Shown here in pieces: positions 7,907 to 31,176 of a stretch of 64,000 nucleotides of DNA (positions within the stretch are counted from its first letter, which is position 1; every line of letters begins with the position of its first letter). Position numbers and translations under genes: made by a program. The notes beneath the pieces are model-generated. The model saw only the letters and a list, made by a program, of their open reading frames with translations. It was not told the DNA's origin and ran no database searches. Origin of the DNA: Bdellovibrionales bacterium. GTDB taxonomy: Bacteria > Bdellovibrionota > Bdellovibrionia > Bdellovibrionales > JAGQZY01. The stretch lies in the NCBI GenBank assembly GCA_964229765.1, contig CAXREJ010000053.1, positions 1,359 to 65,358 on the forward strand, written 5' to 3'.

Positions 7907-9253
7907 ATGTCACAAACCCAAGAGAAAAGCCTTTTTGGACATCCAATAGGACTTTACGTCCTCTTTTTTACAGAAATGTGGGAGCGATTTTCCTATTATG
8001 GAATGAGAGCTCTTTTAATTCTCTATATGACAAAAGAGTTAATTATCAATGCTCGTAACGGTGAGTACATTATGGGGTTTGAATATATAGAGGCTATGTA
8101 CAGTGGCCTTGGAGTTCAACCCTTAGCTTCCCAGATTTACGGACTCTATACTTTCTTGGTCTATTGTACGCCTTTACTGGGTGGACTCTTGGCGGATCGT
8201 TTTATCGGTGAAAAGTACTCCATCATTTTAGGGGGAGTTCTGATGACAATTGGTCACTTCCTAATGGCTTTTGAGTCTCTTTTCTTACTCGCATTGGTCT
8301 TTCTTATTTTTGGTAACGGAGCTTTTAAACCTAATATTTCAACCCAGGTGGGTGGTCTTTATCCAGAAGGTGATCCTCGTCGAGATGGTGCTTTTACTAT
8401 TTTTTATATGGGAATTAATCTTGGAGCCATATTCTCGCCCATTGTCTGCGGAACATTAGGTGAAATCTATGGTTGGCACTATGGTTTCACCGCTGCTGGT
8501 GTAGGCATGGTATTAGGGTTGATCGTCTATCTCTTTGGGCAAAAATACTTACCTAAAACCGCTTTTGAGAAAAATAAAGAAGCCAAAGTTAAGACAGCCG
8601 CTAAACCTTTGAGTAAAGGCCAATGGAATGCCATCTTAGGATTTTTTGTGCTCTCCTTAGCAAATATCGTTTTTTGGGGTGTTTTTGAACAGCAGGGAAA
8701 CACTTTACAGTTATTATCAACGGATCATACGGATTGGACAATTGGAAGTTGGACGGTTCCTTCCACATGGCTACAGTCACTGAATCCCCTTTTTATATTC
8801 ATTTTCGCACCTTTGTTAATGAGGCTGTGGGAAAAGCAAGGTGATAAGCAGTTATCAAGCATTGCTAAAATGTCTGTAGGCTGCATGCTAATGGGCTCAG
8901 GCTTTGTCTTTCTGATCTATATTACACAAGGATTTACTCCTCAAACCATGATTAGTTTCCTGTGGTTTGTTCCAATGATGTTTGTGGTAACAGTCGGTGA
9001 ATTGTTCTTTTCTCCTATAGGACTTTCTCTTGTCACAAAAATTGCGCCGCCAAGACTTGTGGGAATGATGATGGGGTGGTGGTTTTTTACGACAGGTCTT
9101 GGTAACTATTTCGGTGGTTATTTGGGCACATTCTACGCCACGATGACTAAATCAGAGTTTTTCACACTGTGCTTAGTTTTAGGTATAGCCGTTGGAATTG
9201 GAATTTTTATTTTACAAAAACCTTTGAAAAAAGCAGTAGGACACGGAGTTTAA
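7907..9253 (+). CDS. POT/PTR2-family proton-dependent di/tripeptide permease
   Basis: 448 aa polytopic protein. Motifs ERFSYYGMRALLILYM and GGLLADRFIGEKYSIILGG (PTR2 signature). Confidence 0.9.
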   Translation: MSQTQEKSLFGHPIGLYVLFFTEMWERFSYYGMRALLILYMTKELIINARNGEYIMGFEYIEAMYSGLGVQPLASQIYGLYTFLVYCTPLLGGLLADRFIGEKYSIILGGVLMTIGHFLMAFESLFLLALVFLIFGNGAFKPNISTQVGGLYPEGDPRRDGAFTIFYMGINLGAIFSPIVCGTLGEIYGWHYGFTAAGVGMVLGLIVYLFGQKYLPKTAFEKNKEAKVKTAAKPLSKGQWNAILGFFVLSLANIVFWGVFEQQGNTLQLLSTDHTDWTIGSWTVPSTWLQSLNPLFIFIFAPLLMRLWEKQGDKQLSSIAKMSVGCMLMGSGFVFLIYITQGFTPQTMISFLWFVPMMFVVTVGELFFSPIGLSLVTKIAPPRLVGMMMGWWFFTTGLGNYFGGYLGTFYATMTKSEFFTLCLVLGIAVGIGIFILQKPLKKAVGHGV

Positions 9254-9254
9254 T

Positions 9255-10637
9255 ATGGGAGAAAATACAGGAAAATTTCCACCTCAAATTAAATACCTTA
9301 TTGGGAATGAAGGTTGTGAGCGCTTTAGCTTTTATGGAATGCGAACGATTCTCACTGTTTTTATGGTGGAGTACCTTGCTTTAAAAGCCGGTTTTGCAAC
9401 CGAAGTTTATCATATGTTCGTAGCCGGTTGTTATCTTACTCCACTAGCTGGAGCTTACCTCGCCGATCGCTATTTTGGCCGCTTTAAAGTGATCCTCTGG
9501 CTCTCAATCGTTTACTGCCTTGGTCATGGGGTGATTGCTCTTTACGAAAATGAAATGGGACTTTATTGGGGCTTGGCTTTGATTGCTATAGGCTCAGGGG
9601 GAATTAAACCTTGTGTTTCAGCCTTTGGAGGGGACCAGTTTCATCCAGACAATAAATTGGGAATCTCTCGGTTCTACAATATGTTTTACTGGATTATCAA
9701 TTTTGGTTCTGCCACCTCTTCTGTGTTAACACCGTTTTTGTTGGCAAAACTCGGGCCGGCCATTGCCTTCGGTATACCTGGAGTGCTTATGCTGATAGCG
9801 ACCATCGTTTTTTGGATGGGGCGTAAGCAGTATGAAATAAAACCGCCTTCTGGGAAGAATCCTGACTCTGTGCCACGTGTTTTAATTTCTGCACTTAAGA
9901 ATCGCGTTCCCAATCAAAAATTTCTCGATGGGGCATTGAAAAATCACTCCCAAGAAGTGGTCGATGGAGTTCGCGCGGTTCTTTCCATTATGGTTCTATT
10001 CTTGGTCGCCGTTCCTGTTTTTTGGGCTCTGTTTGATCAACATGGTTCCACATGGGTATTGCAAGCTCTGCAAATGGATCCAATGGTTTTTGGGTTTAAA
10101 TTAGAACCCTCGGCTATGCAGGCGCTGAATCCATTTATGGTTATGGCCTTAATTCCGATTTTTGTTTTTGGAGTCTATCCCACTGTGCAGAAGTTTTTTA
10201 ACTTCACACCTTTGCGACGTATGACTGTTGGTATGGTCGTTGCCGGTTTTGCCTTTGCTCAAGTGGGTTTTATTCAATACTTTTTAGATGAGCAAATAGC
10301 CTCGGGTGTTCTTTTGGAAGATCGTATTAATATCTTCTGGCAATTCTTTCCCTATTTAACAATTACAATTGCGGAAGTTTTGATTTCTATTACTGGACTT
10401 GAGTTTGCCTATACCCAAGCGCCAAAGAGTATGAAATCCACAATCATGAGTTTTTGGATGCTAACAACTTTCCTAGGAAACGTTTATGTGGCAGTGGCCT
10501 CAAAATTTATGGGAAGTGGTCATCAAGATAGTGTGAATGGAAACTTCTTTATGTTTTTTGCTTTACTCATGCTAGGGGCCAGTGGTGTTTTTGCACTATT
10601 AGCTCGAAACTATAAGATGAGAGAAAAATACGAATAG
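9255..10637 (+). CDS. POT/PTR2-family peptide permease (second tandem paralogue)
   Basis: 460 aa. Motifs ERFSFYGMRTILTVFM and GAYLADRYFGRFKVILW. It starts 1 nt after the upstream stop. Confidence 0.9.
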   Translation: MGENTGKFPPQIKYLIGNEGCERFSFYGMRTILTVFMVEYLALKAGFATEVYHMFVAGCYLTPLAGAYLADRYFGRFKVILWLSIVYCLGHGVIALYENEMGLYWGLALIAIGSGGIKPCVSAFGGDQFHPDNKLGISRFYNMFYWIINFGSATSSVLTPFLLAKLGPAIAFGIPGVLMLIATIVFWMGRKQYEIKPPSGKNPDSVPRVLISALKNRVPNQKFLDGALKNHSQEVVDGVRAVLSIMVLFLVAVPVFWALFDQHGSTWVLQALQMDPMVFGFKLEPSAMQALNPFMVMALIPIFVFGVYPTVQKFFNFTPLRRMTVGMVVAGFAFAQVGFIQYFLDEQIASGVLLEDRINIFWQFFPYLTITIAEVLISITGLEFAYTQAPKSMKSTIMSFWMLTTFLGNVYVAVASKFMGSGHQDSVNGNFFMFFALLMLGASGVFALLARNYKMREKYE

Positions 10638-15525: not shown

Positions 15526-16148
15526 TGTTTCTTTATATCATACTTTAGTTGCTAGGACTGGTTTTATTCTTTTCATATTCAATAGGAGTTGCATCAGTTT
15601 TATTGCTGGAAGGTTGGTTTTTTCTATCTAAGTATTAGAAGCATAATATTAGTAGTAGGTCTGGGAAGTACTTAATTTAATAATAAATTGTGTTAGCTAT
15701 TAATAACTAGATTATTGATGAATGCTAGTTCATATCGTGAAGTGAATAACAAAAAGATTCAGTGAGAAAATATAAATATACAATATATGTTTATGTTGAA
15801 TTCTAAAGCTGCCCATTAGAAAAATGTGTAAAATAATAAATATTTTAGCGACACTATTTTATGATCAGACATACTATAAATCATACATGAGTCTCATAAG
15901 CCTGCGCTTTTTTAAGGCTTTTCGCAATTTCTCTCAAATTTAGAACATATATTTATTTCAATAAAATTGAAAAAAGTTCAGGAAAAAATGCAATAAAAGT
16001 GACCAAAAAAGTCCGGTGTCAAATTATTAGACAGTGTGGAACAAGTGTTCTCAATAGGTTACAAGAAAATTGTTAAGGTACGGTTATTGTAATGTATACA
16101 AGTGAAAAATTAAATCGGTTAACTTACTATGTTTTTGTCAGGGGAAAC

Positions 16149-17471
16149 ATGAAGAATAACAGCGAGATATATTCCTTTAAAGGGAATGTATTTAAAATTT
16201 ATTTTTGGTGCCTTTTTGCAACCACACTTTTGGTTGCAACAAAGGGGTATGCGCAAACAGCGGAAAAAGAAGCTGGTGCTCGCTTTGATTCTTTAAAAGA
16301 ACTTCCCGTTGTTGAGGAAGAAGAGAAAAGTGAGAAGTACGATTCCTCAATTCAAAGATCCAATTTCTTAAGTCAAAAACCTCAGTATGAAAAAGAAATT
16401 GAAGAAGCTGTTAAAAACAGAAGATCTCAGTTCTTTTGGAAATTGCGAATGGATGGACAGTCTTTACAGACAGATTCTAATATACAGTCACAAATTGCTG
16501 GTGGAGCTTTTGGATTAAAATTTAACTATGAATTAGTTGAAGGTCTTCAATTCAAATCACGTGGAAATGTAAACTTTCAAACGGGAAGAACACAAGACGT
16601 ATTTGGCGATCAAGAACCAAGTTCTGGTCTTTATCCTAGAGACTTTAAAATTCACTATAGACCTTTTGAAGATTATTTAGATCTTGAAGCAGGAGTTATT
16701 AGTCAGGGTAAATTTAACGAGCCACTATTTGTATCCAGTCTACCCTTTATTGGATTTAGCGAAAATTTTAATTATGAGGTCGGTGCGGTAACTCTTCGTT
16801 TAGGGGCTCAACAGATGGTGCCAACCTCTTATACGCAATCCACTCGTGTTTCTGAAAGGGAGCAAGTTCCTCAATTTGGGACTCAAACAGTAGCGGCTAA
16901 ATGGATGATAAGTCGTAACAATTTTCTAGATGCCTCTGTGACACACTTTTCCTATAAAAACCTACCTTCTGTTGTGGCTTTTAACAGTTTTATTTATGGA
17001 AACACCGTTACTAATACAGACATTAATAATGCTGAGTTCATTTACGGATTTGATGGCTTTCTCAATCAAGTGACTTTTGAGCAAAAAATAACAAACAGTT
17101 TAAGTGCTCAGTTGCAATGGAATACGATTCAAAATAATAAAGCGCCGAGTGATTCTGGCGAGGCTCAAAGTATCAACTTGTGGTTAGCTAATGATTTTGG
17201 TCGTTGGATAGTGGCCACTCACTATAAAGATTATTTTATTGAGTCGGATGCTGTCCCCTCTTTTTATAACTCTCATTATTTGGGGCATAATAATCGCATC
17301 GGTCATTCCTATCGTATTGATGTGGAATCAAAAAAATGGGGTGTTATTTTTAGCGCTTCATACACTAAAGCGAATTTATTACAAACTGCGAATCGTCGAA
17401 TTGATGGATTACAACAAGATAATCAGCAAATTTTCTATCTAAGCGTGGAGACCCTTTATGACTTTATTTAA
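16149..17471 (+). CDS. Outer-membrane beta-barrel protein (unknown family)
   Basis: 440 aa from ATG 16149 (GGGGA upstream). Signal peptide ...LLVATKGYAQT, then a charged linker, then alternating beta-strand pattern to the C-terminal ETLYDFI. Its end overlaps the next gene by 14 nt. Confidence 0.65.
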   Translation: MKNNSEIYSFKGNVFKIYFWCLFATTLLVATKGYAQTAEKEAGARFDSLKELPVVEEEEKSEKYDSSIQRSNFLSQKPQYEKEIEEAVKNRRSQFFWKLRMDGQSLQTDSNIQSQIAGGAFGLKFNYELVEGLQFKSRGNVNFQTGRTQDVFGDQEPSSGLYPRDFKIHYRPFEDYLDLEAGVISQGKFNEPLFVSSLPFIGFSENFNYEVGAVTLRLGAQQMVPTSYTQSTRVSEREQVPQFGTQTVAAKWMISRNNFLDASVTHFSYKNLPSVVAFNSFIYGNTVTNTDINNAEFIYGFDGFLNQVTFEQKITNSLSAQLQWNTIQNNKAPSDSGEAQSINLWLANDFGRWIVATHYKDYFIESDAVPSFYNSHYLGHNNRIGHSYRIDVESKKWGVIFSASYTKANLLQTANRRIDGLQQDNQQIFYLSVETLYDFI

Positions 17472-20400
17472 GTCGTTGGTATCAATATTAACTCTGATTT
17501 CTTTGGTTGGCTGTGTTAATGCCGATCGAGAGAGTAAGCTGCAAGATCAACAGCTATCAGAATATAGTATTGAACAAAGCCTAATCGCCTTTAATAATCG
17601 CGCTATGTTTGAGGTAGGGGAGATACAACTCGAAGACGTTAAGTTTTCAGATAATAATCAAGGTGTTTTACGTCAATCCAATGAGATTCAACTTTTCTTT
17701 AAACTATGTAGTATTAGAGATCGGGCCTCTCAAGGTACGATTAGAAATGAAAGATTTCATATTAAATCAGAGTTGGGTGAAAATATCCTTTGGAAAAGAT
17801 CAGACAATAGTTCCGAGATCTCCAATCCTATTACTGTGAATAGTGGTAACTGTTTGAGATGGAGCCAAAAAGTTCCTGAGTTTGATTTTTACGCACCTTC
17901 TGTCAATATTGCACTTCACTTTGAGATTGAATCCCTTTCTGGCCAATTAGGTAAGATTGTTAAGAGAATTGGTTTTAACCCTTGGGATATGCACCGTCGA
18001 CAGAGTTTATCCAGCGGATTTTTTGATTTAACGGATTACAACCGAGCGGATTGGCATTCGGGTCAATGGGTTGTTGGCGATCAGATTGTTGATGCATTAA
18101 AAGGTGATTTGTTTGATCGGACGGCAGAACTTCGTTTTGATTCTATTTCGATTGAGCCTGTTGAGAGAACAAGTGTGAATGTCGCCAACTTTAATCGTCA
18201 AGCGGATGAGCTTTTAGATTCTGAAGAAATGGCACGTCGACGTGAAATTGAAAGATCTTTGTTAGAAGATCGCGCGGGTCTTCATATCAACGTTAATATG
18301 AATGCTCAGCCAGTGGTTTGGAATTACGATTCAGGTGGAAATAGAGATCGTACACCTATTACAAGTGGACGTTTTAAAGTTTATATGAACTTAATTGCTC
18401 GTGGAGCGGCTGATAATAACGAGAGACACTTATTAAGCTCTAATGTCACCGATATTACTGGTCGAAGTGCTTCCTTTATCTGGAGGATGAATCAGGACGG
18501 ACGCTTAATTACCAGCGTTCCTTTGATCTTAAGAAATCGAACAGAGTTTGGTCGAGTGGAGTTGCTGTTAAAAGTTGTTCCTGTGGACTCGGGACTTAGA
18601 AATGTAAAACCTTATACAGCGGTTTTTGATCTTGGTCAGTATGATCAGTGGGTGAGAAGACAAAATACCAGTTTTTCTTTTGATGAAAACTACAATCCTC
18701 TAGATCAAGTTTCTTATGATCAGTATGTGAATTCTGTTGACGGAATAGTTGATGATTTAAGAACAGTAAGAGAAATCGACCGATTTTATTTTGGTCCATT
18801 AAGAATGCGTTTCATACGCATTATGCCTGGTGAAACGGCCACAGATAGAACTTTACAGTATAGTGTTTCCACTTGTGTTGAGCATGGTCTTTATGGAAGT
18901 CGAGTTGGGCCTGGTTTACAGTTTGATATTGAAACAGAAGATAAGGGGCGAACCCACAAAATGAGAAGACAAACCAATGAAGAAGGTTGTCTTGTTTGGT
19001 TTGGATTCTTATCTCATAAGTTCTACCGCAAAGAAGTCTTACAGAAAAAGACAGCAATGGTTCGCTTTGCTGGAACAAAGAACAATGGTTCATCAAGTCC
19101 TGACAACAACATTAATCAGTGGGAAGAGACCATTAACCGGTACGAGCAAGAGTTTACTTATTACATGAACCCATGGGATGAAAAGTTCACCTTTGGTTGG
19201 GATGAGAACGAGATGCCTGATGGTTATGCTGATGAGATTGCTGAGCAAAGAAAGACAGCCCCGGTTTCTCAGTTGTTTATCGCTGACTTCAGATATGAAA
19301 CTATGGGCTTTCGCTATGCAATTGATAAATATCTCAACCTTAAAGTTAAAAAAGCGGTTCTTTTTAAAGCATTCCCTTATGTGTTGAAATACAATTCCAT
19401 TGTTTATGGTCGAATGGGAACCCAAAAGCTTCGTGATGGCGTTTATTTAATGAAAGTGGCCTTACAGAAAGATTACCTAGACCCTGCGGCGAAAGGTGTC
19501 AGAATTTACGATAGACATCTCCGTCGTCCCTATCAATTGGCAGAGTCCAATCGTCAGGAAAGTTTAACGGCCGAAGACTTAGAAGCTGCTTACGGAGCCG
19601 AGTATGTTTATGAGAGGTATGACCGTGAGTATGGTACGGTTGATGAGTTATTGCCTGAAGGTGTGGAGTCACATCCAGGGATGGGTTATTCGGATTCCGA
19701 CGATGATGTTGTTGGTGATTCCGTTGATCATCGTTTACTCACTGAAAGTGAATTAAGAGATACAAAAAAAGAATTTATATCCGTTCAAACAAAATTGGTT
19801 CGAGTTCTTGGTGGAATGATTATTACCCCCATCGAGTTTGAAATTGATGACTTGCGTTTAATGAGAATTAGGAATCAGTTTTATATTCAATTGGAAACAA
19901 TTGATGAACATAAACTCAGAATGGCTACCGTATTGGATCATGTCCTTGAAGATGTGGCTCGTGAAGGTAATCTTGAGACTGAATTTGAGCGTATATTTAC
20001 TGAGCTTGAAAGTCTTGAGTCCTTAGAAGTTGAGAGCGCTCAATTACAAGAGAGAATGAATCAGTACGACGAAACAGTGGATATGTCTGAAGCTCGTTCT
20101 GAGGTTGAAAGACTGGCTGGTTCTATTGAAGAAGGGCGTAATCGAATCCTTGGGATGTTAGGGCTTGATTCTGTTGATCGTGAAGATCAAGAGCTTTTCG
20201 AGAGAAGACGCCGTGAAATTGTAGAGAGATTTAATCGCCTTAGGCAGTACCGTCAACGTTTACAGGCTGTTGATGGGGATGATTATTTAGCGGCCTTTAG
20301 GAACTCTAAAAGAGAGCAAATTAATAGTGTTCTTAGAGCTCTTCAATATGAAGACTCTGTAAGTATGATTGATACAAATCAGATTGACGAAGAGTACAAT

Positions 20401-22725
20401 CAAGAAGATGGGGAAGGTCAAAGAGAGCAAGGTTTTGTCGATGATCCTATTCAAAGATTATTCTTTTCAAGACAAGGAACTTCTTCTGATCGAATTATGG
20501 CTGAACTGGATTATCGTATCGAGGTGGCAAGGCAGAGACTCGCTCAAGCGGAAGAAAATGGCCGATCCGATGATGTGGGTCTTTATCGTCAACTTATTGA
20601 GAACTTAGAAACTTTAAAGGTGGCCGACTTTACTGTTAGCCCTTTAACGCCAAGCTTTGATTTTGAACTAGTGGTGAATGAAGGGGAACATAATCCCGAT
20701 CTGCCCGAGGATGATGGTTTGTCTGGTTTGCCAGCAAGAACTTTTGTAGGTCCTTTGACTTTTGTTTTTAATACCAATGGTTCTTCATTGAGACCCACAG
20801 ACCGTTTGAATGAAGCTTATTGTCGTACCTCATTTTGTGAGGCGCCTGAGGAAATGATTAGAAGAGGTATTCCACCAACAGATGTTGAAACGGCTACACA
20901 AGTTCATACCGATGGAGAATTGCCGCTTACTTCGCAGCCTATTTATGCGAGTGGCGATTCTATCAATGCCAACTATGAGAACAATAAATACTACGGTTAT
21001 TTAAAAGATTATCATAATAAAACCGTTGATATGCTGATTGAAGAGAAAAAAGATATTGAAGAGAGAGAGTACCGTAAGATGGAAGAAGCCTCTCAAATCA
21101 TTAATTATACAAAAACCATGAAGCTCCGTTACGTTCTATTGAATGATAATGAGCGCTCACGTCTTAAGGGTATAGATCATAATTGTGCTCAAACGACTGA
21201 TATTGATCGAATCACTGAGTGTTTTACTGATATTCTTTCTGGAAGTGATATTTTAAATAAAGGAAGAATGTTTGAGCAATTGAATCACAGACAGACTTAT
21301 TATCCTGAGTTTGGTGATGCTCAAGAAAATAATTTCTCCAATAGAGCTTACTATAATTTAGCCGGTGATCAGGAAATCACGGAACAGAATATTTTAGATA
21401 TTATGGAAAAGGGATGGCGTAGTCCTGATATCGACCCCATTATGGTTCGTCGTTTTATGCATAGAATGTGCTTTGTGCTTGCTGAAAACTTTTTCACACC
21501 GGAGTATTTTGAAAAATCAGCGCCAACAATATGGGATACGTTTTCTCAAAGAGAAACGACCATGAATATGAGAGGTTTGATTCACCTTGAAAAAATATGT
21601 CATCGCTATGTTGGTAATATGTATGGCTACTTCAGGCAAAGAGACCGCTACGAGAGAGGTCAGCCATTTATCAACCTGGATCGTTTTTCATTTGATCATG
21701 ATGATGCTGTAAGACCACAGAATATGAGATTTTCTCCCATAGTTATTGAAAGAAAAGTGAGAGCTTATTCGACCACGGATCGTTATGTTTACCGTGGTGG
21801 TAAATCACTTAATATTAATTTATCGGCTAGCTTTAACTTATCGAGTAGTAACGGGATTAAGGTTGTCACTTCAGCAAACTTTAAACCTTGGGACTGGGTC
21901 TCTGATGTGACTGGAGCTCTTTTAGGTCGAGTGGCTAGAAATATCATTGGTGGTGTTGGAATCAGCCAGTCCAACTCGATGGATGAGTCAGCGGGACGCT
22001 CACAAGGTGTTACGGTGAGTTCTGGTACGTTTTTAGTCAGCCAACAGGCAACACTTGATATTGAGCTTGGTGAGTATGAAAGATGTTTAGTTGTAAGACT
22101 TCATCCTAAAATCATTAAAGATTTTATGGACTCTGATTTTATTAAAGAGAGTTTTTTAGATGAAAATATTGATCGCAACAATGATGGTGAGCCTGAGGAG
22201 TTAAGTGATATCTTATCTCAAGGTATGTTAATTTGTTCTGGGCAAATCCGTAGTAACCGTTTGCCGATCAAAGAAAAGTATTATTACTTCACTCAGCATT
22301 TTACTGAAGGTGATATGCTCGATACTGCGGATCTTCATAACCACCCTTGGCTGTTACAGTTAAGAGGTTATAGGGATTTTCAAGTTTTCACTTCAATGAT
22401 TGGAGCTCGTGAAGTTCAATATATTGATACTAATAACTGGGCCGGAGAAGTTATGGGGCGAACTATGACAGATGCTGCGGCTTTAGCGAATGGTAACCTT
22501 TCTGAAATGGGAGGAAGTGATACTGACAATTACAATGCGCAATTTCAAATTGTGCATCAGTCAGAAGATATAAACTGGCCACTGGAAGAGCTAGGAAGAA
22601 CTTATTTTGAAGTTCTGCCCACTTTCCCGGGACTCTATACTTACATGAATGAAGATGGAGAAGATGTAAGTAATTGGCCTTATGATAGTACAGATCCAGG
22701 GCGATCTTTTGCACCTAATGAGTGA
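17458..22725 (+). CDS. Giant lipoprotein (1755 aa) of unknown function with an acidic coiled-coil central region
   Basis: MTLFKSLVSILTLISLVGC (lipobox LVGC). The reading frame is uninterrupted for 5.3 kb. The central Glu/Arg-rich segment is predicted coiled coil (about 19850-20600). No family recognised. Confidence 0.85.
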   Translation: MTLFKSLVSILTLISLVGCVNADRESKLQDQQLSEYSIEQSLIAFNNRAMFEVGEIQLEDVKFSDNNQGVLRQSNEIQLFFKLCSIRDRASQGTIRNERFHIKSELGENILWKRSDNSSEISNPITVNSGNCLRWSQKVPEFDFYAPSVNIALHFEIESLSGQLGKIVKRIGFNPWDMHRRQSLSSGFFDLTDYNRADWHSGQWVVGDQIVDALKGDLFDRTAELRFDSISIEPVERTSVNVANFNRQADELLDSEEMARRREIERSLLEDRAGLHINVNMNAQPVVWNYDSGGNRDRTPITSGRFKVYMNLIARGAADNNERHLLSSNVTDITGRSASFIWRMNQDGRLITSVPLILRNRTEFGRVELLLKVVPVDSGLRNVKPYTAVFDLGQYDQWVRRQNTSFSFDENYNPLDQVSYDQYVNSVDGIVDDLRTVREIDRFYFGPLRMRFIRIMPGETATDRTLQYSVSTCVEHGLYGSRVGPGLQFDIETEDKGRTHKMRRQTNEEGCLVWFGFLSHKFYRKEVLQKKTAMVRFAGTKNNGSSSPDNNINQWEETINRYEQEFTYYMNPWDEKFTFGWDENEMPDGYADEIAEQRKTAPVSQLFIADFRYETMGFRYAIDKYLNLKVKKAVLFKAFPYVLKYNSIVYGRMGTQKLRDGVYLMKVALQKDYLDPAAKGVRIYDRHLRRPYQLAESNRQESLTAEDLEAAYGAEYVYERYDREYGTVDELLPEGVESHPGMGYSDSDDDVVGDSVDHRLLTESELRDTKKEFISVQTKLVRVLGGMIITPIEFEIDDLRLMRIRNQFYIQLETIDEHKLRMATVLDHVLEDVAREGNLETEFERIFTELESLESLEVESAQLQERMNQYDETVDMSEARSEVERLAGSIEEGRNRILGMLGLDSVDREDQELFERRRREIVERFNRLRQYRQRLQAVDGDDYLAAFRNSKREQINSVLRALQYEDSVSMIDTNQIDEEYNQEDGEGQREQGFVDDPIQRLFFSRQGTSSDRIMAELDYRIEVARQRLAQAEENGRSDDVGLYRQLIENLETLKVADFTVSPLTPSFDFELVVNEGEHNPDLPEDDGLSGLPARTFVGPLTFVFNTNGSSLRPTDRLNEAYCRTSFCEAPEEMIRRGIPPTDVETATQVHTDGELPLTSQPIYASGDSINANYENNKYYGYLKDYHNKTVDMLIEEKKDIEEREYRKMEEASQIINYTKTMKLRYVLLNDNERSRLKGIDHNCAQTTDIDRITECFTDILSGSDILNKGRMFEQLNHRQTYYPEFGDAQENNFSNRAYYNLAGDQEITEQNILDIMEKGWRSPDIDPIMVRRFMHRMCFVLAENFFTPEYFEKSAPTIWDTFSQRETTMNMRGLIHLEKICHRYVGNMYGYFRQRDRYERGQPFINLDRFSFDHDDAVRPQNMRFSPIVIERKVRAYSTTDRYVYRGGKSLNINLSASFNLSSSNGIKVVTSANFKPWDWVSDVTGALLGRVARNIIGGVGISQSNSMDESAGRSQGVTVSSGTFLVSQQATLDIELGEYERCLVVRLHPKIIKDFMDSDFIKESFLDENIDRNNDGEPEELSDILSQGMLICSGQIRSNRLPIKEKYYYFTQHFTEGDMLDTADLHNHPWLLQLRGYRDFQVFTSMIGAREVQYIDTNNWAGEVMGRTMTDAAALANGNLSEMGGSDTDNYNAQFQIVHQSEDINWPLEELGRTYFEVLPTFPGLYTYMNEDGEDVSNWPYDSTDPGRSFAPNE

Positions 22726-25214: not shown

Positions 25215-28115
25215 ATGCTCAAAGGCAAAATTATTTTTCGCTTTGTCGTAGTCAGTTTTTTACTTGTATTTGCATTTAATAACTGTACGAAGGATGCGGA
25301 TTTTGACAATTCTGATAGTTCAAGCGCAAGTTCATTTGCGGCGGACTATTTATTAGGACTCATTGATGATGCGGTGGAAACGGAAGCTCAGTTACGTGAG
25401 CAGGGGACTCCAGAAGCTATTGCACAGGCCAATGAAATTCGTTTGTATATTGATATGATTGAACAGCTTATTGCTGTTGATGGACGCGGTCTATCTATTG
25501 GCTCGGCTCAAGTTCTTGATGCTCGAGACTATTTATTAAATGCTCATTTAATGGGGCGCGATATGCTTATTGAGTATAACTTCAATGCAGCCATTGCCGC
25601 GCTTCAAGCTGAAGATGAAAGACTCTCAAATTTAATTGCTGAGTTAGAAATTAAGTTTGATGCTTCACTGGCAGACTTAGAGACTCGCTTGAGAACTGAG
25701 ATGCAGGCTTCTGATGCTGAGATCCTGGCTCAATTGAACGCATTAAGAGATCGTTTTAATGCTTTTGAAACTCAGGTTAATAATAAGTTTATTGAAGTCG
25801 ATGGAAGACTTGTTAATCTTGAAACCATCACCACAAATCTTCAAACTCGTATTGATGAGATTGATGCGAATATTGTAATTATTCAAAATAATATTACTAA
25901 TATTCAAGATAGCAGTGAGTCCGCGATGAAAGCTCTTTGGGAAGCTCTTGAGGGAGTGAAAAAAGATCTTATGAATGAAATCGTTGCTGTTAAAGAAGCA
26001 CAAAATGAAATGAAAGAAAAGTTAGCTGAACAACAAAAAGCTTTTGAAAGCTATGTGGCGGATCAGTCAAAATTGGCTGAAGTTCAAGGGCGCATGTGTA
26101 AGCTTGATGCCAGTGGAGAATTGTCTGTTGGTCAAACGGCTTGTGATGGTTCATCGACTGAAGATGATGTTCTTGACGGTTCTTGTTGTATGACTGCTGA
26201 TAACTTAGATTGCGATATGATGTTTCCTGATGAAACTGATTCAGCGAAGTTAGCTAAAACTCAGTGTAACTCGTTTATCGTGACTTTAAGAAATCGCGAT
26301 GCTCAGATTAAAGAATTGGCGGAAGCTGATGCTGAGCAGAAGAAAGATATTGAACTGTTAATGGCAAGAGTGGATGACCTTGAGGAGGTTGTGAAAAACC
26401 TTTCTGAGGAAGTTAAAGGTCTTGTTGCCGATATGGAAAGTTTAAAATCTAAACTGGCTGATATTGATGATAGACTTCTTATTGTTGAGTTTAAAGCTTC
26501 AAGAGCAGAGGCTGGTGCAACTTTAAATGAAATGTCTGATCTTTATTTAGCTTGGATCACTCGTCGTAAAGCGGATGTGAGAAATCGTTTTTGTCACCAT
26601 AATGCAAAAGTCGCTTACAATAGAAGTGACTATGAAGTGGCGAAACAAAATCATGTTTACTGTCATGAGAGATTGGCTTGGTTGAATCAAGCACAAGAAC
26701 TTGTTCAATTAGCTAAAGCTTATACTAATGGTGTTTTATCAACAAATGTTGATCAGAATTGTAGTGCTAATATCTCAGGTCGTAATGCTGAATCTTTATC
26801 AGTAAATGATCTTTCTGACATGAATGTGGCTCAAGAGGTCATTAAGAAATGTACCAGTGGGCAAGCTTTAACTAAAGCTTATCTATTAAGTATTATTAAG
26901 CTTCATAATAAAATTGGTCCTGATTTCAGAACGGCTGAGTACATGGCTAAAAAAGCTAAAATTGCTCAACTCCTTTATTTTGGTAGCGAAGTGCATTTAG
27001 CTTCATCTGCTGCTATTCAAGCTTTTGAAAATGTGGATCCTACTGCGGATCATTTAAAAGACACTCCTTATGGAAAAATTGAGCGTGTTTTTAAGCGCAG
27101 ATATGTAGAGACTCGTTTAAGAGTTTCTGGAAAGTATCCAGAAGATCCTTCACAGTTTAAGGCTAATATCTCTGGATTCAATGTTGTTTACACTCATGCT
27201 GAAATCAATGGGGCTGCTGATGCTTACTTAAAAAGAGTTAAGGCTTTAGAGATTGAAGGTACTTGTGGTGGTCAATGTGGATTTAAAGTTGTTGGAAGAA
27301 ACAAGGTTGCTCGTATTGGATCTCGTTACAGTTATCCTCAAGATTCAAAAACCAAGTGTCCTATCTTTAACGACATCGTTATGATTCCAAGTCAAGATGG
27401 AAAGCACTACGCTTACCGTTTAAACTACTCTCGTTATCAAGGTGCTACTGAGCAAATCTTACCTTACTGGACATGGAACTCGAATCATCATCCAATTGCT
27501 GAAAGTGCTGCGGATGTTGCTGCCGGTAAATTCAGACAGTGTGGTTATAGAGTTCGTAACACAGTACACAGATTTGGTATTCCTGATACAAAATTGCGTG
27601 GACGCTTAGCACTTCGCTATGGGAAGCCTTATGCGAAAACACATGGTCTTCCACAGTGTATGAGATTCCACTTCACTTGTCGTCTTTGGGATGGTCCAGA
27701 TGGCAATGGTGAGTGGGTCAGTCCTAATCCGAATGCCAACATCATGCATTATTTGAGTGGTTACAGTAACGCCAAGGTTGATTCTTTCTGTAAGACTTCT
27801 GGAGCTTCTTATGTACCAAAAACTCGTCAGCTTTCTCAAGATGAAAAAGCAACAATGCATTACTACAAAGGTGTTCAAGATGCTGGATCAATAGCCATGG
27901 CTAACGCTGTAAACTCTAATACGACTCAGTTAACAGAGGACTATTGGATGACTCGTGATGTGGCTGTTGCTTATGGAAGTGGAAATAAAACGACTTCAGT
28001 GGCCACTCCTTTTTATGGTAAATCATCTTCTCATGGACAGGCCTTCTTTAGAAAACTGTTCAAGATGACTGATTTTGCCAATATTGATGTGCAACAATGT
28101 TATGATCCTCAATAA
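25215..28115 (+). CDS. Large exported coiled-coil protein (966 aa) with Cys-rich globular C-terminal half; possible non-canonical lipoprotein
   Basis: Signal peptide FRFVVVSFLLVFAFNNC (lipobox-like, non-canonical). N-terminal 450 aa are heptad-rich (LETRLRTEMQ..., IDEIDANIVIIQNNITNIQ). The C-terminal half has many Cys. GGGGGA RBS. Confidence 0.8.
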   Translation: MLKGKIIFRFVVVSFLLVFAFNNCTKDADFDNSDSSSASSFAADYLLGLIDDAVETEAQLREQGTPEAIAQANEIRLYIDMIEQLIAVDGRGLSIGSAQVLDARDYLLNAHLMGRDMLIEYNFNAAIAALQAEDERLSNLIAELEIKFDASLADLETRLRTEMQASDAEILAQLNALRDRFNAFETQVNNKFIEVDGRLVNLETITTNLQTRIDEIDANIVIIQNNITNIQDSSESAMKALWEALEGVKKDLMNEIVAVKEAQNEMKEKLAEQQKAFESYVADQSKLAEVQGRMCKLDASGELSVGQTACDGSSTEDDVLDGSCCMTADNLDCDMMFPDETDSAKLAKTQCNSFIVTLRNRDAQIKELAEADAEQKKDIELLMARVDDLEEVVKNLSEEVKGLVADMESLKSKLADIDDRLLIVEFKASRAEAGATLNEMSDLYLAWITRRKADVRNRFCHHNAKVAYNRSDYEVAKQNHVYCHERLAWLNQAQELVQLAKAYTNGVLSTNVDQNCSANISGRNAESLSVNDLSDMNVAQEVIKKCTSGQALTKAYLLSIIKLHNKIGPDFRTAEYMAKKAKIAQLLYFGSEVHLASSAAIQAFENVDPTADHLKDTPYGKIERVFKRRYVETRLRVSGKYPEDPSQFKANISGFNVVYTHAEINGAADAYLKRVKALEIEGTCGGQCGFKVVGRNKVARIGSRYSYPQDSKTKCPIFNDIVMIPSQDGKHYAYRLNYSRYQGATEQILPYWTWNSNHHPIAESAADVAAGKFRQCGYRVRNTVHRFGIPDTKLRGRLALRYGKPYAKTHGLPQCMRFHFTCRLWDGPDGNGEWVSPNPNANIMHYLSGYSNAKVDSFCKTSGASYVPKTRQLSQDEKATMHYYKGVQDAGSIAMANAVNSNTTQLTEDYWMTRDVAVAYGSGNKTTSVATPFYGKSSSHGQAFFRKLFKMTDFANIDVQQCYDPQ

Positions 28116-28121
28116 AAACAA

Positions 28122-29216
28122 ATGTCTTTGTTGATTAATCGAAATCCCCATGTAAGCATTTTATACATGGGGATTTTTTTATTTATTTTAATGATCGCAA
28201 TACCTAGTCAAACTTTTGCTGCTGAAAAATGTGCAGTGATGAAGAAAAACTCTGTCGCATTGAAAGCTAAAACAAAAGTAAAGAAAAGAGTGCTTCGCAA
28301 TGAGGTGTTTCCTTTTTTGGGTTTAAGTAAAAATGGTGTGGCTGTAAAAACCAAAATTAATGGACAGGCTTATTGGCTTCTTTCTAAGCTCGTTAGAGTG
28401 GAAGAAGGAGAACTTTGTGCACTCAATAAACTTGAAAGCAATAATAAAAGTGTCGATCCACTGGATTCGCTTCTTGATTCATCGACTGATCAATATGATT
28501 CTCTTCCTGAGGATTCAAGTTTAGATAAAATGACAAAGTCATCAGAGAGCAAAGAGTTCAAAGCTGTCTCTGAAGTAAAAAGCGGATGGACTTATGGTGT
28601 TGAAGCTGGATACTTAATTTCTAATTCAAAAAAACCCTTTGAGAATTTGATCACTCCAACTCCTCCAAGTAATGTGGATGTGAATGAAGATACTTATGAT
28701 AGTCCTTTTGTTGATTCCGTTTCTGGTGGCTCGGGCTTTGACTTTTCAGGTTTTGTGCAGATGCCACTTTCTCCGTTATTTTCTTTGAAGATGCAGCTAG
28801 GTTATATGCAAAGGGAATTAAGTTACGTCTATAGAACCAATCCTAATAATACCGATCAATCCTTTGTGACCTATAATCAACTGCCGCAGTCTGAGAACAC
28901 AGTCTCATTTCAATCGGTTTATTTAACTCTTATGCCAAAATTTTCTTTCTCACTTTTTAGTGTTCCTATGGATTTTGGTCTAGGAATTAGAGGGCATTAT
29001 TATTTGCAACAATTTAGGCAAGAGCGCAGAACGGCCCCGCAGAAGTTGACTCCTTATTTTGTGGATTCGGGATACAGTGCTTTTGAAATTGAAATTCTAC
29101 CCCGTTTAGAGGTCAAGTTTCAGCCCATCTACGTTTATTTACAATTGACCAATCAGCTGACCGGAGCCTCGCATTTTAATATGGATCCTCACCTTGGGGT
29201 CGGGATCGAGTTCTAA
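28122..29216 (+). CDS. Outer-membrane beta-barrel protein with N-terminal SH3b-like segment (tentative)
   Basis: 364 aa. Signal peptide ...IPSQTFAAEK. The C-terminal 200 aa have an alternating pattern ending GVGIEF (terminal Phe). It starts 6 nt after the upstream stop. Confidence 0.6.
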   Translation: MSLLINRNPHVSILYMGIFLFILMIAIPSQTFAAEKCAVMKKNSVALKAKTKVKKRVLRNEVFPFLGLSKNGVAVKTKINGQAYWLLSKLVRVEEGELCALNKLESNNKSVDPLDSLLDSSTDQYDSLPEDSSLDKMTKSSESKEFKAVSEVKSGWTYGVEAGYLISNSKKPFENLITPTPPSNVDVNEDTYDSPFVDSVSGGSGFDFSGFVQMPLSPLFSLKMQLGYMQRELSYVYRTNPNNTDQSFVTYNQLPQSENTVSFQSVYLTLMPKFSFSLFSVPMDFGLGIRGHYYLQQFRQERRTAPQKLTPYFVDSGYSAFEIEILPRLEVKFQPIYVYLQLTNQLTGASHFNMDPHLGVGIEF

Positions 29217-29449: not shown

Positions 29450-30403
29450 GTGAAATATAAAGACCTATTCATTTTTTCAATTTATGTATCAACTACTTTT
29501 ATTTCCAGTCCTGTTTGGTCAGCCATGCATTGTAGTGATTTGCTCACTCGTGCCCAAGAAAATGAGAGTATTCATTCGGAAATAGACAACCTAAATCAGG
29601 CGATACTTGAAATCCGTCCTCTCCTGGAAAGACACCAACTCACTATAGTGCCGATGACCTCTTTGCGTTCTCAAGTGGGTGAGAGATCATCTCGACCCTA
29701 TTTACATAAGCTTCTCAGTTGGGCTGATCGATTGAGAACAAGAATGGGAGGCCGCCCCTTGAATATGGAGGGGCACAATCAGGAGCCCGTCTCTGATCAA
29801 GTTTTAATGGCTCCTCTATTGAATGACTCCCCATTAATGCAAGAAAGAACAGATCAAGATGCCGTTGTGCCGGCGCGAGCCCATCGCGAGCCACTCACTT
29901 ATGAACAATTGAAGCGTCGCCAGGTCACAGAGGTCGAAGATCGTTGTTTTGCTGGAAGTTGCTCGGTTTTGACTCCCAATGGAGAGAGACCTATTTCCGA
30001 GCTGAGAGTCGGTGATTCTGTATTTTCTGTGGATGTTAACACTGGGCAAGTGGTCACTAATCGTATTGCAAAAGTTCACTATACTGAAAATGGACAGGCT
30101 GTCCATGCGCGAATAGAGGGCGATAGAGCGATGTGGGTAAATCCTCTTCATCGTTTCTATACCCCTGACAGCAAAGGGTGGTTACCCTTGTTACAAGTTA
30201 ATATCTATAGCCAATCTGTAATGGCTGTGGAAATAGGGCGCGATAGTGCTCATTCTGGCTTTAACAATCAAAGCTTGGAGGTTGAATCTCAAAGTGTGCT
30301 TGAGTGGATGCCTGTTTACAGTTTAGAGATGGCCGAGCCACCTTATAACTTTATTGTTGAAGGGATTTTGGTTCACAATGGTCCCTTGCCCAAAATCATA
30401 TAG
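29450..30403 (+). CDS. Secreted protein with C-terminal Hint / bacterial intein-like (BIL) autoprocessing domain
   Basis: GTG start, signal peptide ...SSPVWSA. Hint blocks are CFAGSCSVLTPNGERPISELRVGDSVFS (aa 166 on), NPLHRFYT and VYSLEMAEPPYNFIVEGILVHN. Only GPLPKII follows. Confidence 0.75.
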   Translation: MKYKDLFIFSIYVSTTFISSPVWSAMHCSDLLTRAQENESIHSEIDNLNQAILEIRPLLERHQLTIVPMTSLRSQVGERSSRPYLHKLLSWADRLRTRMGGRPLNMEGHNQEPVSDQVLMAPLLNDSPLMQERTDQDAVVPARAHREPLTYEQLKRRQVTEVEDRCFAGSCSVLTPNGERPISELRVGDSVFSVDVNTGQVVTNRIAKVHYTENGQAVHARIEGDRAMWVNPLHRFYTPDSKGWLPLLQVNIYSQSVMAVEIGRDSAHSGFNNQSLEVESQSVLEWMPVYSLEMAEPPYNFIVEGILVHNGPLPKII

Positions 30404-30513: not shown

Positions 30514-31176
30514 ATGTTGAGATCTTTATTTGTTTTGTGTGTTTTAATTCCCTCTGTCGTGCAGGGCAATTTTTGTCGGGACCTTTTTTCTCAACAAAAT
30601 TATCGCAGAAGAAATTTAACTCAAGTTTATATTCATCGAAATAGCCAATTTCCACTCCATCCTGATTTAATCGAATTTTCCATGGCTTCTGATATCGTCC
30701 TCAATAAGATATCCGTCGTTAGTACGATAGACTACGATCGAATTGCTTTGTCTTTAAATAACCTACATAGCCGCTATGGTGTTCCTGTGCGAGTGGCTTT
30801 ACCTGATTATAGGATACCAGAAAACGTCCGAGTGATACCGATGAGGCTTGTTGAAGATATTGTGCAAGATATCTTACATACTGTTTATAGTGACCTTCAG
30901 GGTTGGGGAGTTGATATATACCAATTGTCTGATAGGGAAGAACTATTCTGGAAGAGTGTTCATGACTTCTTTGATCAGCAGCAAGTTATTAACCTGGCGC
31001 GAGATTATCGTAATGGGCTTGTGGCTAATCAATCCGATCCAAGGGTTATTTTTGACCTAAAGAATAATTTGCTAGAAGGACTGCGCTCTTCATTCGTAAG
31101 TTATATGGATGAGGTTATGCCAGGAGGACTCAACTCTGATGAATATACATTTTTAAGTCAAAGTCATATATTTTAG
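30514..31176 (+). CDS. Hypothetical secreted protein
   Basis: 220 aa. Signal peptide MLRSLFVLCVLIPSVVQG, then NFCRDLF. No family recognised. Confidence 0.55.
   Translation: MLRSLFVLCVLIPSVVQGNFCRDLFSQQNYRRRNLTQVYIHRNSQFPLHPDLIEFSMASDIVLNKISVVSTIDYDRIALSLNNLHSRYGVPVRVALPDYRIPENVRVIPMRLVEDIVQDILHTVYSDLQGWGVDIYQLSDREELFWKSVHDFFDQQQVINLARDYRNGLVANQSDPRVIFDLKNNLLEGLRSSFVSYMDEVMPGGLNSDEYTFLSQSHIF

Follow-up and report, generated by a model that had tools for sequence, protein, structure and literature searches.

A Bdellovibrionales protein with a predicted signal peptide, an orphan N-terminal region and a terminal Hint domain of the bacterial intein-like type

We analysed a 64,000-nucleotide stretch of DNA from a Bdellovibrionales bacterium (assembly GCA_964229765.1, contig CAXREJ010000053.1, positions 1,359 to 65,358 of the forward strand; hereafter the window) and report on one of its open reading frames (ORFs), 29450-30403 (+), which starts with GTG and encodes a product of 317 amino acids (aa; the query). 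The C-terminal half of the query is a genuine Hint domain of the Hedgehog/intein fold. As a whole, the gene probably encodes a Sec-exported precursor in which an orphan N-terminal fragment is joined to a Hint domain of the bacterial intein-like (BIL) type, whose autoprocessing would free that fragment. Its layout is that of a class of bacterial intein-like proteins which is fairly common and has been described before; the sole element that is possibly new is a conserved lysine in the short C-terminal tail, together with its link to lysine-directed ligation.

Homologues, a structural model and structural matches underpin the Hint assignment. An exhaustive phmmer search of 1.84 billion representatives (E ≤ 1e-3) matched 1002 proteins, the best at E 2e-25 to 1e-20, and the best 150 of these 1002 all aligned within residues ~130-317, mostly 163-317. 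An AlphaFold model built from a 26-sequence family alignment had an all-beta topology, with a predicted local distance difference test score (pLDDT) of ~90-98 over residues 170-310. Foldseek against the PDB returned Hint folds only, with E values of 1e-10 to 1e-6 for BIL, mini-intein and Hedgehog structures and target-normalised template modelling (TM) scores of 0.70-0.86; the top matches were the Tetrahymena BUBL BIL2 (E 1e-10) and the Ssp and Npu DnaB mini-inteins (TM 0.84-0.86), joined by the Clostridium thermocellum BIL and the Hedgehog Hint domain. An earlier model-made description of the window from its letters (the sequence-only reading) had named a Hint-family profile search as its check, and the Hint, PT-HINT, Hint_2 and intein profiles did match, though all below their curated cut-offs: Hint_2 (PF13403) scored 26.7 bits against 28.4 (E 8e-6), Hint (PF01079) 24.5 against 29.7 (E 2.4e-5; residues 165-206 only), PT-HINT (PF07591) 19.1 against 27.7 and Intein_splicing 16.6 against 35.8, with weak matches to NCBIfam intein_Nterm and intein_Cterm, again under curated cut-offs, and marginal matches in a PDB sequence search. 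Within the family alignment, Hint_2 weakly matched 25/26 members and PT-HINT matched 9/26 at E<0.01. Because all curated Hint-clan profiles score below threshold, we regard the domain as a divergent subfamily, one that curated profiles recognize narrowly and that homologues and fold identify decisively. Searches by word index, run with the protein as well as two alignments, recovered almost nothing besides the query, a metagenome scan gave no closer relatives (identity ≤34%, or 62% across one 26-residue fragment), and no second Hint domain was found in the window.

Catalytic columns were counted in 159 homologous domains aligned at both ends, 55 of them terminal and 104 internal. The block A cysteine (Cys1) is invariant (159/159, including 55/55 of the terminal class) and the block B histidine nearly so (157/159; 55/55 terminal), which argues that thioester formation is a selected activity. 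The penultimate histidine is present in 154/159 and the terminal asparagine in 156/159 domains, or in 51/55 and 53/55 of the terminal-class relatives. A Cys, Ser or Thr at the +1 position is rare (7/159; 7/104 internal and 0/55 terminal), which marks the clade as BIL-like and without canonical splicing; the query has Gly311 there, and lysine holds the position in 100/159 domains (77/104 internal). The block A column in which the query has Cys171 is Thr in 145/217 domains, and Cys is not among the six commonest residues listed. Block B reads N-P-x-H in the query subgroup (P0001, P0002, P0003 and P0009) in place of the usual T-x-x-H, a Thr-to-Asn change that also occurs in five internal domains, and block F is variable across the clade, with N commoner than D. 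The four catalytic residues of the query are intact and nothing suggests decay of the domain.

Translation bears out the Hint blocks that the sequence-only reading had placed at residues 166-310 (C166, block B H234 and H309-N310), to which AlphaFold and Foldseek add the fold, as well as the seven-residue tail GPLPKII with Gly at +1. Its verdict that splicing is unlikely agrees with the missing +1 nucleophile and was nevertheless too strong: ligation of the flanks has been reported for BILs without this nucleophile (Dassa 2004 and Aranko 2013, by their titles as cited in reviews), and BUBL BIL2 ligates onto lysine.

In the reading frame of the gene, no start codon lies between the upstream stop and the GTG at 29450. 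For three other assemblies of the same strain, publicly available gene calls contain an identical 317-aa product; at 99.98-100% identity, these assemblies of the locus are uninformative on selection. A 105-aa antisense ORF within the gene (29834-30151, -) has no support and is probably spurious. The N-terminus, MKYKD-LFIFSIYVSTTFI-SSPVWS, has the n/h/c layout of a signal peptide as judged by eye and by a crude hydropathy scan, in which the hydrophobic 12-mer from residue 7 has a mean Kyte-Doolittle value of 1.82, and it has no lipobox. By the -3/-1 rule, cleavage would fall near the bond between S24 and A25. Both the signal peptide and the N-terminal region of roughly 140 aa claimed before thus stand, the latter as 141 aa at residues 25-165. 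A hydropathy scan also found an N-terminal hydrophobic segment in 44/55 terminal-Hint relatives.

With moderate confidence, AlphaFold places helices at residues ~22-61, 70-76 and 82-100 in the region of the N-terminal fragment, or cargo; residues 102-145 are predicted to form a disordered acidic linker. Apart from three distant relatives, no homologues of the N-region occurred among the best 150 of the 1002 phmmer matches, and any weak N-only match between E 1e-7 and 1e-3 would fall outside these 150; no family in Pfam or NCBIfam matched the fragment. Only a few of its positions (C28, L32 and P141) are common to the query and its three closest relatives. Many related proteins carry a helical N-domain of ~50-70 aa in two variants (subgroups S and T; CE.IL..A..LGR.LT..EI versus RL.EI...L...GY), which are mutually homologous (hhalign probability 94%), and the Cys28 motif of the query weakly resembles the CE.IL..A motif of the first by hhalign. 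As a candidate member of this N-domain family, the query N-region was rejected: the hhalign match spans only 17 columns around the Cys motif (E 0.014, probability 3%), and the window contains no match to the hidden Markov models (HMMs) of S and T. We regard the cargo as an orphan because it has no family and no listed homologues and the HMMs of related N-domains miss it. Features are collected in Table 1.

Table 1. Features of the query gene and its product, in window coordinates.
Feature	Position	Strand	Basis or remark
Shine-Dalgarno-like AGGAAA	29439..29444	+	5 nt 5' of GTG; read from sequence
Predicted Sec signal peptide, aa 1-24 (MKYKDLFIFSIYVSTTFISSPVWS)	29450..29521	+	ORF translation, hydropathy
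N-terminal fragment ('cargo'), aa 25-165, 16.3 kDa, pI 6.1	29522..29944	+	Composition; AlphaFold
Cys28	29531..29533	+	Sole Cys of the N-terminal fragment; motif H-C-S-D-L-L-T-R-A; invariant in 4-member subgroup alignment
Hint (bacterial intein-like) domain, aa 166-310	29945..30379	+	phmmer, AlphaFold, Foldseek, sub-threshold Pfam Hint-clan matches
Cys166, block A nucleophile	29945..29947	+	Predicted scissile bond between Arg165 and Cys166; CFAGSCS starts at 29945
Cys171, in place of the usual block A Thr	29960..29962	+	Specific to the query protein
Block B N-P-L-H (Asn231...His234)	30140..30151	+	NPLHRFY from 30140
Block G His309-Asn310, potential Asn-cyclisation site	30374..30379	+	Translation check
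Tail G-P-L-P-K-I-I (aa 311-317) and stop	30380..30403	+	HNGPLPKII then stop at 30374-30403

Among 133 related proteins with a Hint domain aligned at both ends, 55 stop 0-12 residues after His-Asn, so a terminal Hint is not unusual. These domains cluster: the nearest neighbour is itself of the terminal class for 46 of the 55, against 18.8 ± 4.2 (maximum 34) with shuffled labels, which indicates an inherited layout and not sporadic truncation. The Hedgehog-like arrangement that the sequence-only reading had singled out is real but not unusual; it is inherited within its clade and already in the literature. P0002, P0003 and P0009, which are the closest relatives, follow the plan of the query throughout: signal peptide, Cys-containing N-region, Hint and xPxxKxx tail. 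Terminal-Hint relatives are largely from Bdellovibrionales and Myxococcota, and one bears the NCBI name 'Hint domain-containing protein [Bdellovibrionales bacterium]'. A scan of genome contigs for relatives, made with a 4-sequence alignment, placed the nearest ones in metagenome-assembled genomes (MAGs) of Bdellovibrionales, Myxococcota and Bradymonadaceae, with those of small size and terminal layout mainly in Bdellovibrionales and Bdellovibrionaceae MAGs. A Bdellovibrionales MAG (JALHOQ010000055; locus L004, 5572-7285) holds two adjacent paralogues of 290 and 287 aa, both built from signal peptide, N-domain, terminal Hint and a tail of 3-5 aa (VKI and AIKTCI); here the architecture has been duplicated locally.

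Elsewhere in the clade the Hint stands in other arrangements, including tandem arrays in archaea and very large flavobacterial proteins that end in Hint. In Myxococcota and Bradymonadaceae, a lipoprotein-type signal is followed by an N-terminal Hint and then a Cys-rich C-terminal domain, the signal Cys lying a few residues before the Hint Cys (for example ...LTGCFTSSCVARG...); such loci are L008 (5935-8640, a Bradymonadaceae MAG, with two tandem genes of this type) and L012-L014, L017, L022, L026 and L039 (Myxococcota). Nostoc, Calothrix and other cyanobacteria have a conserved family of ~410 aa (L007, L015, L019, L023, L027, L028, L033-L035 and L042) in which the signal peptide directly precedes Hint ('ARGGCF...'), followed by HNK and a Gly-rich C-flank of ~250 aa; on this sequence the Hint would sit at the mature N-terminus, the reverse of the query layout.

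Tails after His-Asn in the 55 terminal-class relatives peak at 5-7 residues and almost always carry a lysine, which is present in 50/54 tails where random windows from the same proteins gave an expectation of 10.0 ± 2.8 (maximum 22 in 5000 trials). The first lysine is at +1 in 23 tails, at +2 in 18 and at +3 to +5 in 9; in the query subgroup it is always at +5, and Pro312 and Lys315 are invariant there (xPxxKxx). Together with the retained His-Asn and the constrained tail length, this lysine argues that the C-terminal junction is also used. Its variable position, and relatives (P0066, P0038 and P0131) that stop at HN or a single non-Lys residue beyond it, speak against the tail as an obligatory acceptor. 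The lysine may serve as acceptor, in isopeptide self-ligation like that of BUBL, or it may help catalysis or play a structural part. This 'HN-K' hallmark of the clade is possibly new; we found no description of it in the literature accessible here. Among the top 25 matches is P0023 (810 aa, E 6e-12), a ciliate BUBL-like polyprotein with the order Ubl-BIL-Ubl-BIL-Ubl-BIL-Ubl, and its rank connects the HN-K clade of bacteria with the BUBL BILs of eukaryotes.

In the course of events that we infer, from signal-peptide cleavage through catalytic activity and the fate of the thioester to a role for the released fragment, the precursor would be exported by Sec and the Hint domain would then fold. 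Through an N-to-S acyl shift at the Arg165 carbonyl, assisted by His234, Cys166 would form a thioester. Water or another nucleophile would resolve this thioester, parting an N-terminal fragment of ~16.3 kDa (aa 25-165) from a Hint-plus-tail of ~16.9 kDa. Cyclisation of Asn310, assisted by His309, may in addition clip off the heptapeptide GPLPKII. The sequence-only reading had expected N-terminal cleavage with release or re-ligation of the cargo and/or Asn cyclisation; thioester autoprocessing that releases or transfers the N-terminal fragment, with Asn cyclisation possible, is supported as far as sequence can carry it.

Several points weigh against this account. Every curated Hint-clan profile is under its threshold, and three Hint positions depart from the expected residue: the block B Thr is Asn, the block F Asp is Ser291 and the block F His is Tyr299. 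Cys1 would have to stay reduced in an oxidising periplasm, where C28 or C171 could trap it. The N-terminal fragment has no recognisable function, and no conserved neighbour gene hints at one.

Comparison with known systems places the query most closely among BILs, domains that autocleave at their N- or C-termini (PMC7765530). A C-type of BIL domain with an associated PPS-1 domain is attributed to predatory bacteria in the summary that PMC9185962 gives of Dori-Bachash et al. 2009 (Funct Integr Genomics 9:153); neither Pfam nor NCBIfam contains a profile for it. As summarised there, the C-type BIL is, like the domain of the query, a bacterial Hint that is not an intein; it is described from non-conserved proteins of Bdellovibrio-like and myxobacterial predators, and the nearest genomic relatives of the query lie in Bdellovibrionales, Myxococcota and Bradymonadaceae MAGs. 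The query N-region is unlike the small helical N-domain of its relatives, which itself may or may not be PPS-1. A-type BILs, which terminate in His-Asn and need no +1 nucleophile, cleave at the C-terminus and occur in secreted, variable proteins (PMC7765530). The query, which is predicted to be secreted likewise, shares the His-Asn end without an obligatory +1 nucleophile with A-type BIL/PT-HINT domains such as the Clostridium thermocellum BIL (PDB 2LWY), but scores below the PF07591 cut-off and has no toxin or other domain after its Hint. In B-type BILs the C-terminal motif is absent and cleavage is N-terminal (PMC7765530); B-type/Hint_2 is the best Pfam match of the query, aligned only within the first 45 of 147 profile positions (2-45), whereas the query has His-Asn.

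Beyond the BIL types of bacteria, the best structural match, BUBL BIL2 of Tetrahymena thermophila (PDB 6Y75/6TMM), resolves its thioester on the epsilon-amine of a lysine and conjugates its N-flank to substrates without ATP (PMC8616854). It and the query both run from C1 to H-N without a canonical +1 nucleophile; BUBL BILs, however, lie between ubiquitin-like domains in a eukaryotic polyprotein, whereas the query has an orphan secreted N-flank and a C-flank of seven residues, and Pfam finds no ubiquitin-like domain in it, unlike P0023. Hedgehog/Hog (PF01079; PDB 1AT0, 6TYY) shares a signal peptide, a cargo, a terminal Hint and the Cys nucleophile with the query, but the sequence match is weak, sub-threshold and limited to 42 aligned N-terminal residues; Hog has a sterol-recognition region after Hint where the query has only seven residues, and lacks the intein-type His-Asn that the query keeps. 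The kinship with Hedgehog is not orthology. Burglin 2008 (PMC2362128) drew attention to probably secreted proteins of bacteria in which conserved cysteines lie upstream of a C-terminal Hint-like domain. Members of that group (MXAN_6253, STIAU_1829, plu1731 and others) resemble the query in their signal peptide, weakly conserved Cys-containing N-region and C-terminal Hint-like domain, yet end in ...GG(F/I)LVGD with two conserved upstream cysteines, whereas the Hint of the query closes with ...GILVHN, with a single Cys upstream; because they end without His-Asn, we place them in a different Hint subgroup. Inteins, finally, need a Cys, Ser or Thr at +1 and occupy a conserved host site at which the exteins rebuild the host protein; the query has Gly311, an orphan N-flank and a C-flank of 7 aa. 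By defining features, the query is thus outside the intein, Hog, PT-HINT, Hint_2 and Burglin groups, and it most plausibly belongs with or beside the C-type BILs of predatory bacteria.

Release of the N-terminal fragment is not the only possible outcome of a thioester. The tail could resolve it intramolecularly, so that the N-terminal fragment plus heptapeptide matures and the Hint is discarded; the amine would come from Gly311 (its alpha-amine, once Asn310 has cyclised) or from Lys315 (its epsilon-amine, giving an isopeptide as in BIL2). We consider such self-ligation unlikely, although several observations favour it. His-Asn is kept in 51-53 of 55 terminal-class relatives even though only a short tail follows, tail length is constrained to a mode of 5-7 residues, lysine is in 50/54 tails against 10 ± 2.8 expected, with Pro312 and Lys315 invariant in the subgroup, the best structural match forms a Lys isopeptide, the top sequence matches include a BUBL-like protein of a ciliate, and BIL splicing without nucleophilic side chains is reported, according to paper titles cited in reviews. 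Set against this, the lysine wanders from +1 to +5 and some relatives stop at HN or one non-Lys residue later, the tail has low pLDDT in the AlphaFold model, the addition of seven residues to an orphan fragment brings no obvious benefit, and a lysine beside the junction could equally be structural or catalytic.

A different fate for the thioester would be attack from outside the molecule, for instance by a lipid, an amine of peptidoglycan or a lysine on some other protein, perhaps of prey; the N-terminal fragment would then become covalently attached to its target, in the manner of Hedgehog or BUBL. The secreted cargo with terminal Hint parallels Hedgehog, BIL2 conjugates its N-flank to several substrates without ATP (PMC8616854), and relatives are concentrated in Bdellovibrionales, Myxococcota and Bradymonadaceae. 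What makes this transfer improbable is that the 7 aa after Hint leave no adduct-recruiting region comparable to the sterol-recognition region of Hedgehog and that there is no conserved partner gene.

It is also doubtful that the Hint is a non-functional remnant, inactive or irrelevant, left when a polymorphic-toxin or mobile Hint module was truncated and the toxin or flank at its C-terminus disappeared. PT-HINT-type domains normally sit before toxin domains, large flavobacterial proteins of the same clade also stop just past Hint, and the sub-threshold profile scores and orphan N-region would suit such an origin. The catalytic residues are intact, however, the same full-length layout with a similar xPxxKxx tail recurs in relatives at 25-43% identity from different samples, and terminal-class domains cluster and are not scattered among internal ones. 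Downstream there is no frameshift or remnant ORF, and the next gene, 110 nt on, has its own signal peptide.

Redox gating, an addition to any of these readings in which a disulfide from Cys28 or Cys171 to Cys166 would hold the precursor until it meets a reducing environment, is very improbable. In its favour, all four members of the subgroup have Cys28, Cys171 stands where a Thr is conserved, five residues past Cys1, and intein disulfide 'redox traps' are documented (PDB 3nzm, a DnaE intein with its N-extein in a redox trap, is among the structural matches). Against it, most related subfamilies lack the N-region Cys and none has Cys171.

Autoprocessing that frees the N-terminal fragment remains our preferred reading, and its value is first one of annotation: curated profiles miss the locus, which is best labelled a secreted BIL-type autoprocessing protein and not an intein or a Hedgehog homologue. 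More broadly, cargo plus terminal Hint plus a tail of 5-7 residues is an inherited architecture that carries many different small cargos in predatory-type bacteria, and we found no biological role for it in the literature accessible here. The tail lysine and the structural kinship with BUBL BIL2 yield a concrete hypothesis on how the thioester is used. By analogy with the 'ubiquitin-dispensing' reaction of BUBL BIL2, the lysine could be functional, with the thioester resolved on Lys315 or on a lysine of a target protein, a proposal to which we attach little probability. If true, Bdellovibrio-like and myxobacterial bacteria would secrete ATP-independent, single-turnover protein-conjugation devices, possibly gated by the redox state of Cys28 or Cys171 with Cys166. 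Such single-turnover ligases or cleavers would interest protein engineering.

The window has ~38% GC and is ordinary Gram-negative chromosome, with genes for PldA, FtsK, cytochrome bd, POT transporters, a FadE-like ACAD, DedA and a cyclophilin; an Rfam scan of it gave zero matches. No neighbour gene is conserved around the query, P0002, P0003 or P0009. Directly downstream, 110 nt after the Hint gene, lies a secreted orphan of 220 aa (30514-31176), whose mature N-terminus (..QGNFCRDLF..) bears a superficial likeness to ..SAMHCSDLL.. in the Hint protein. As a paralogue or partner it was rejected, since BLASTP was not significant and no homologue lies beside related Hint genes. With no conserved neighbour and a downstream ORF not detectably related to it, the Hint gene looks stand-alone. 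Immediately upstream, 233 nt away, is a pair of genes (25215-29216) made up of a 966-aa ORF without a credible Pfam family and, 7 nt on, a 364-aa signal-peptide protein with a borderline OMP_b-brl_2 beta-barrel match (26.8 bits against a cut-off of 27). From their sequences these two may be a surface protein and its outer-membrane partner; the pair is not conserved beside relatives. Further upstream, overlapping ORFs of 459 and 1755 aa (16092-22725, +), a giant orphan pair with no Pfam match at E ≤ 1e-3, precede a THUMP methyltransferase and PldA, and two tandem POT-family (PTR2) peptide transporter genes occupy 7907-10637.

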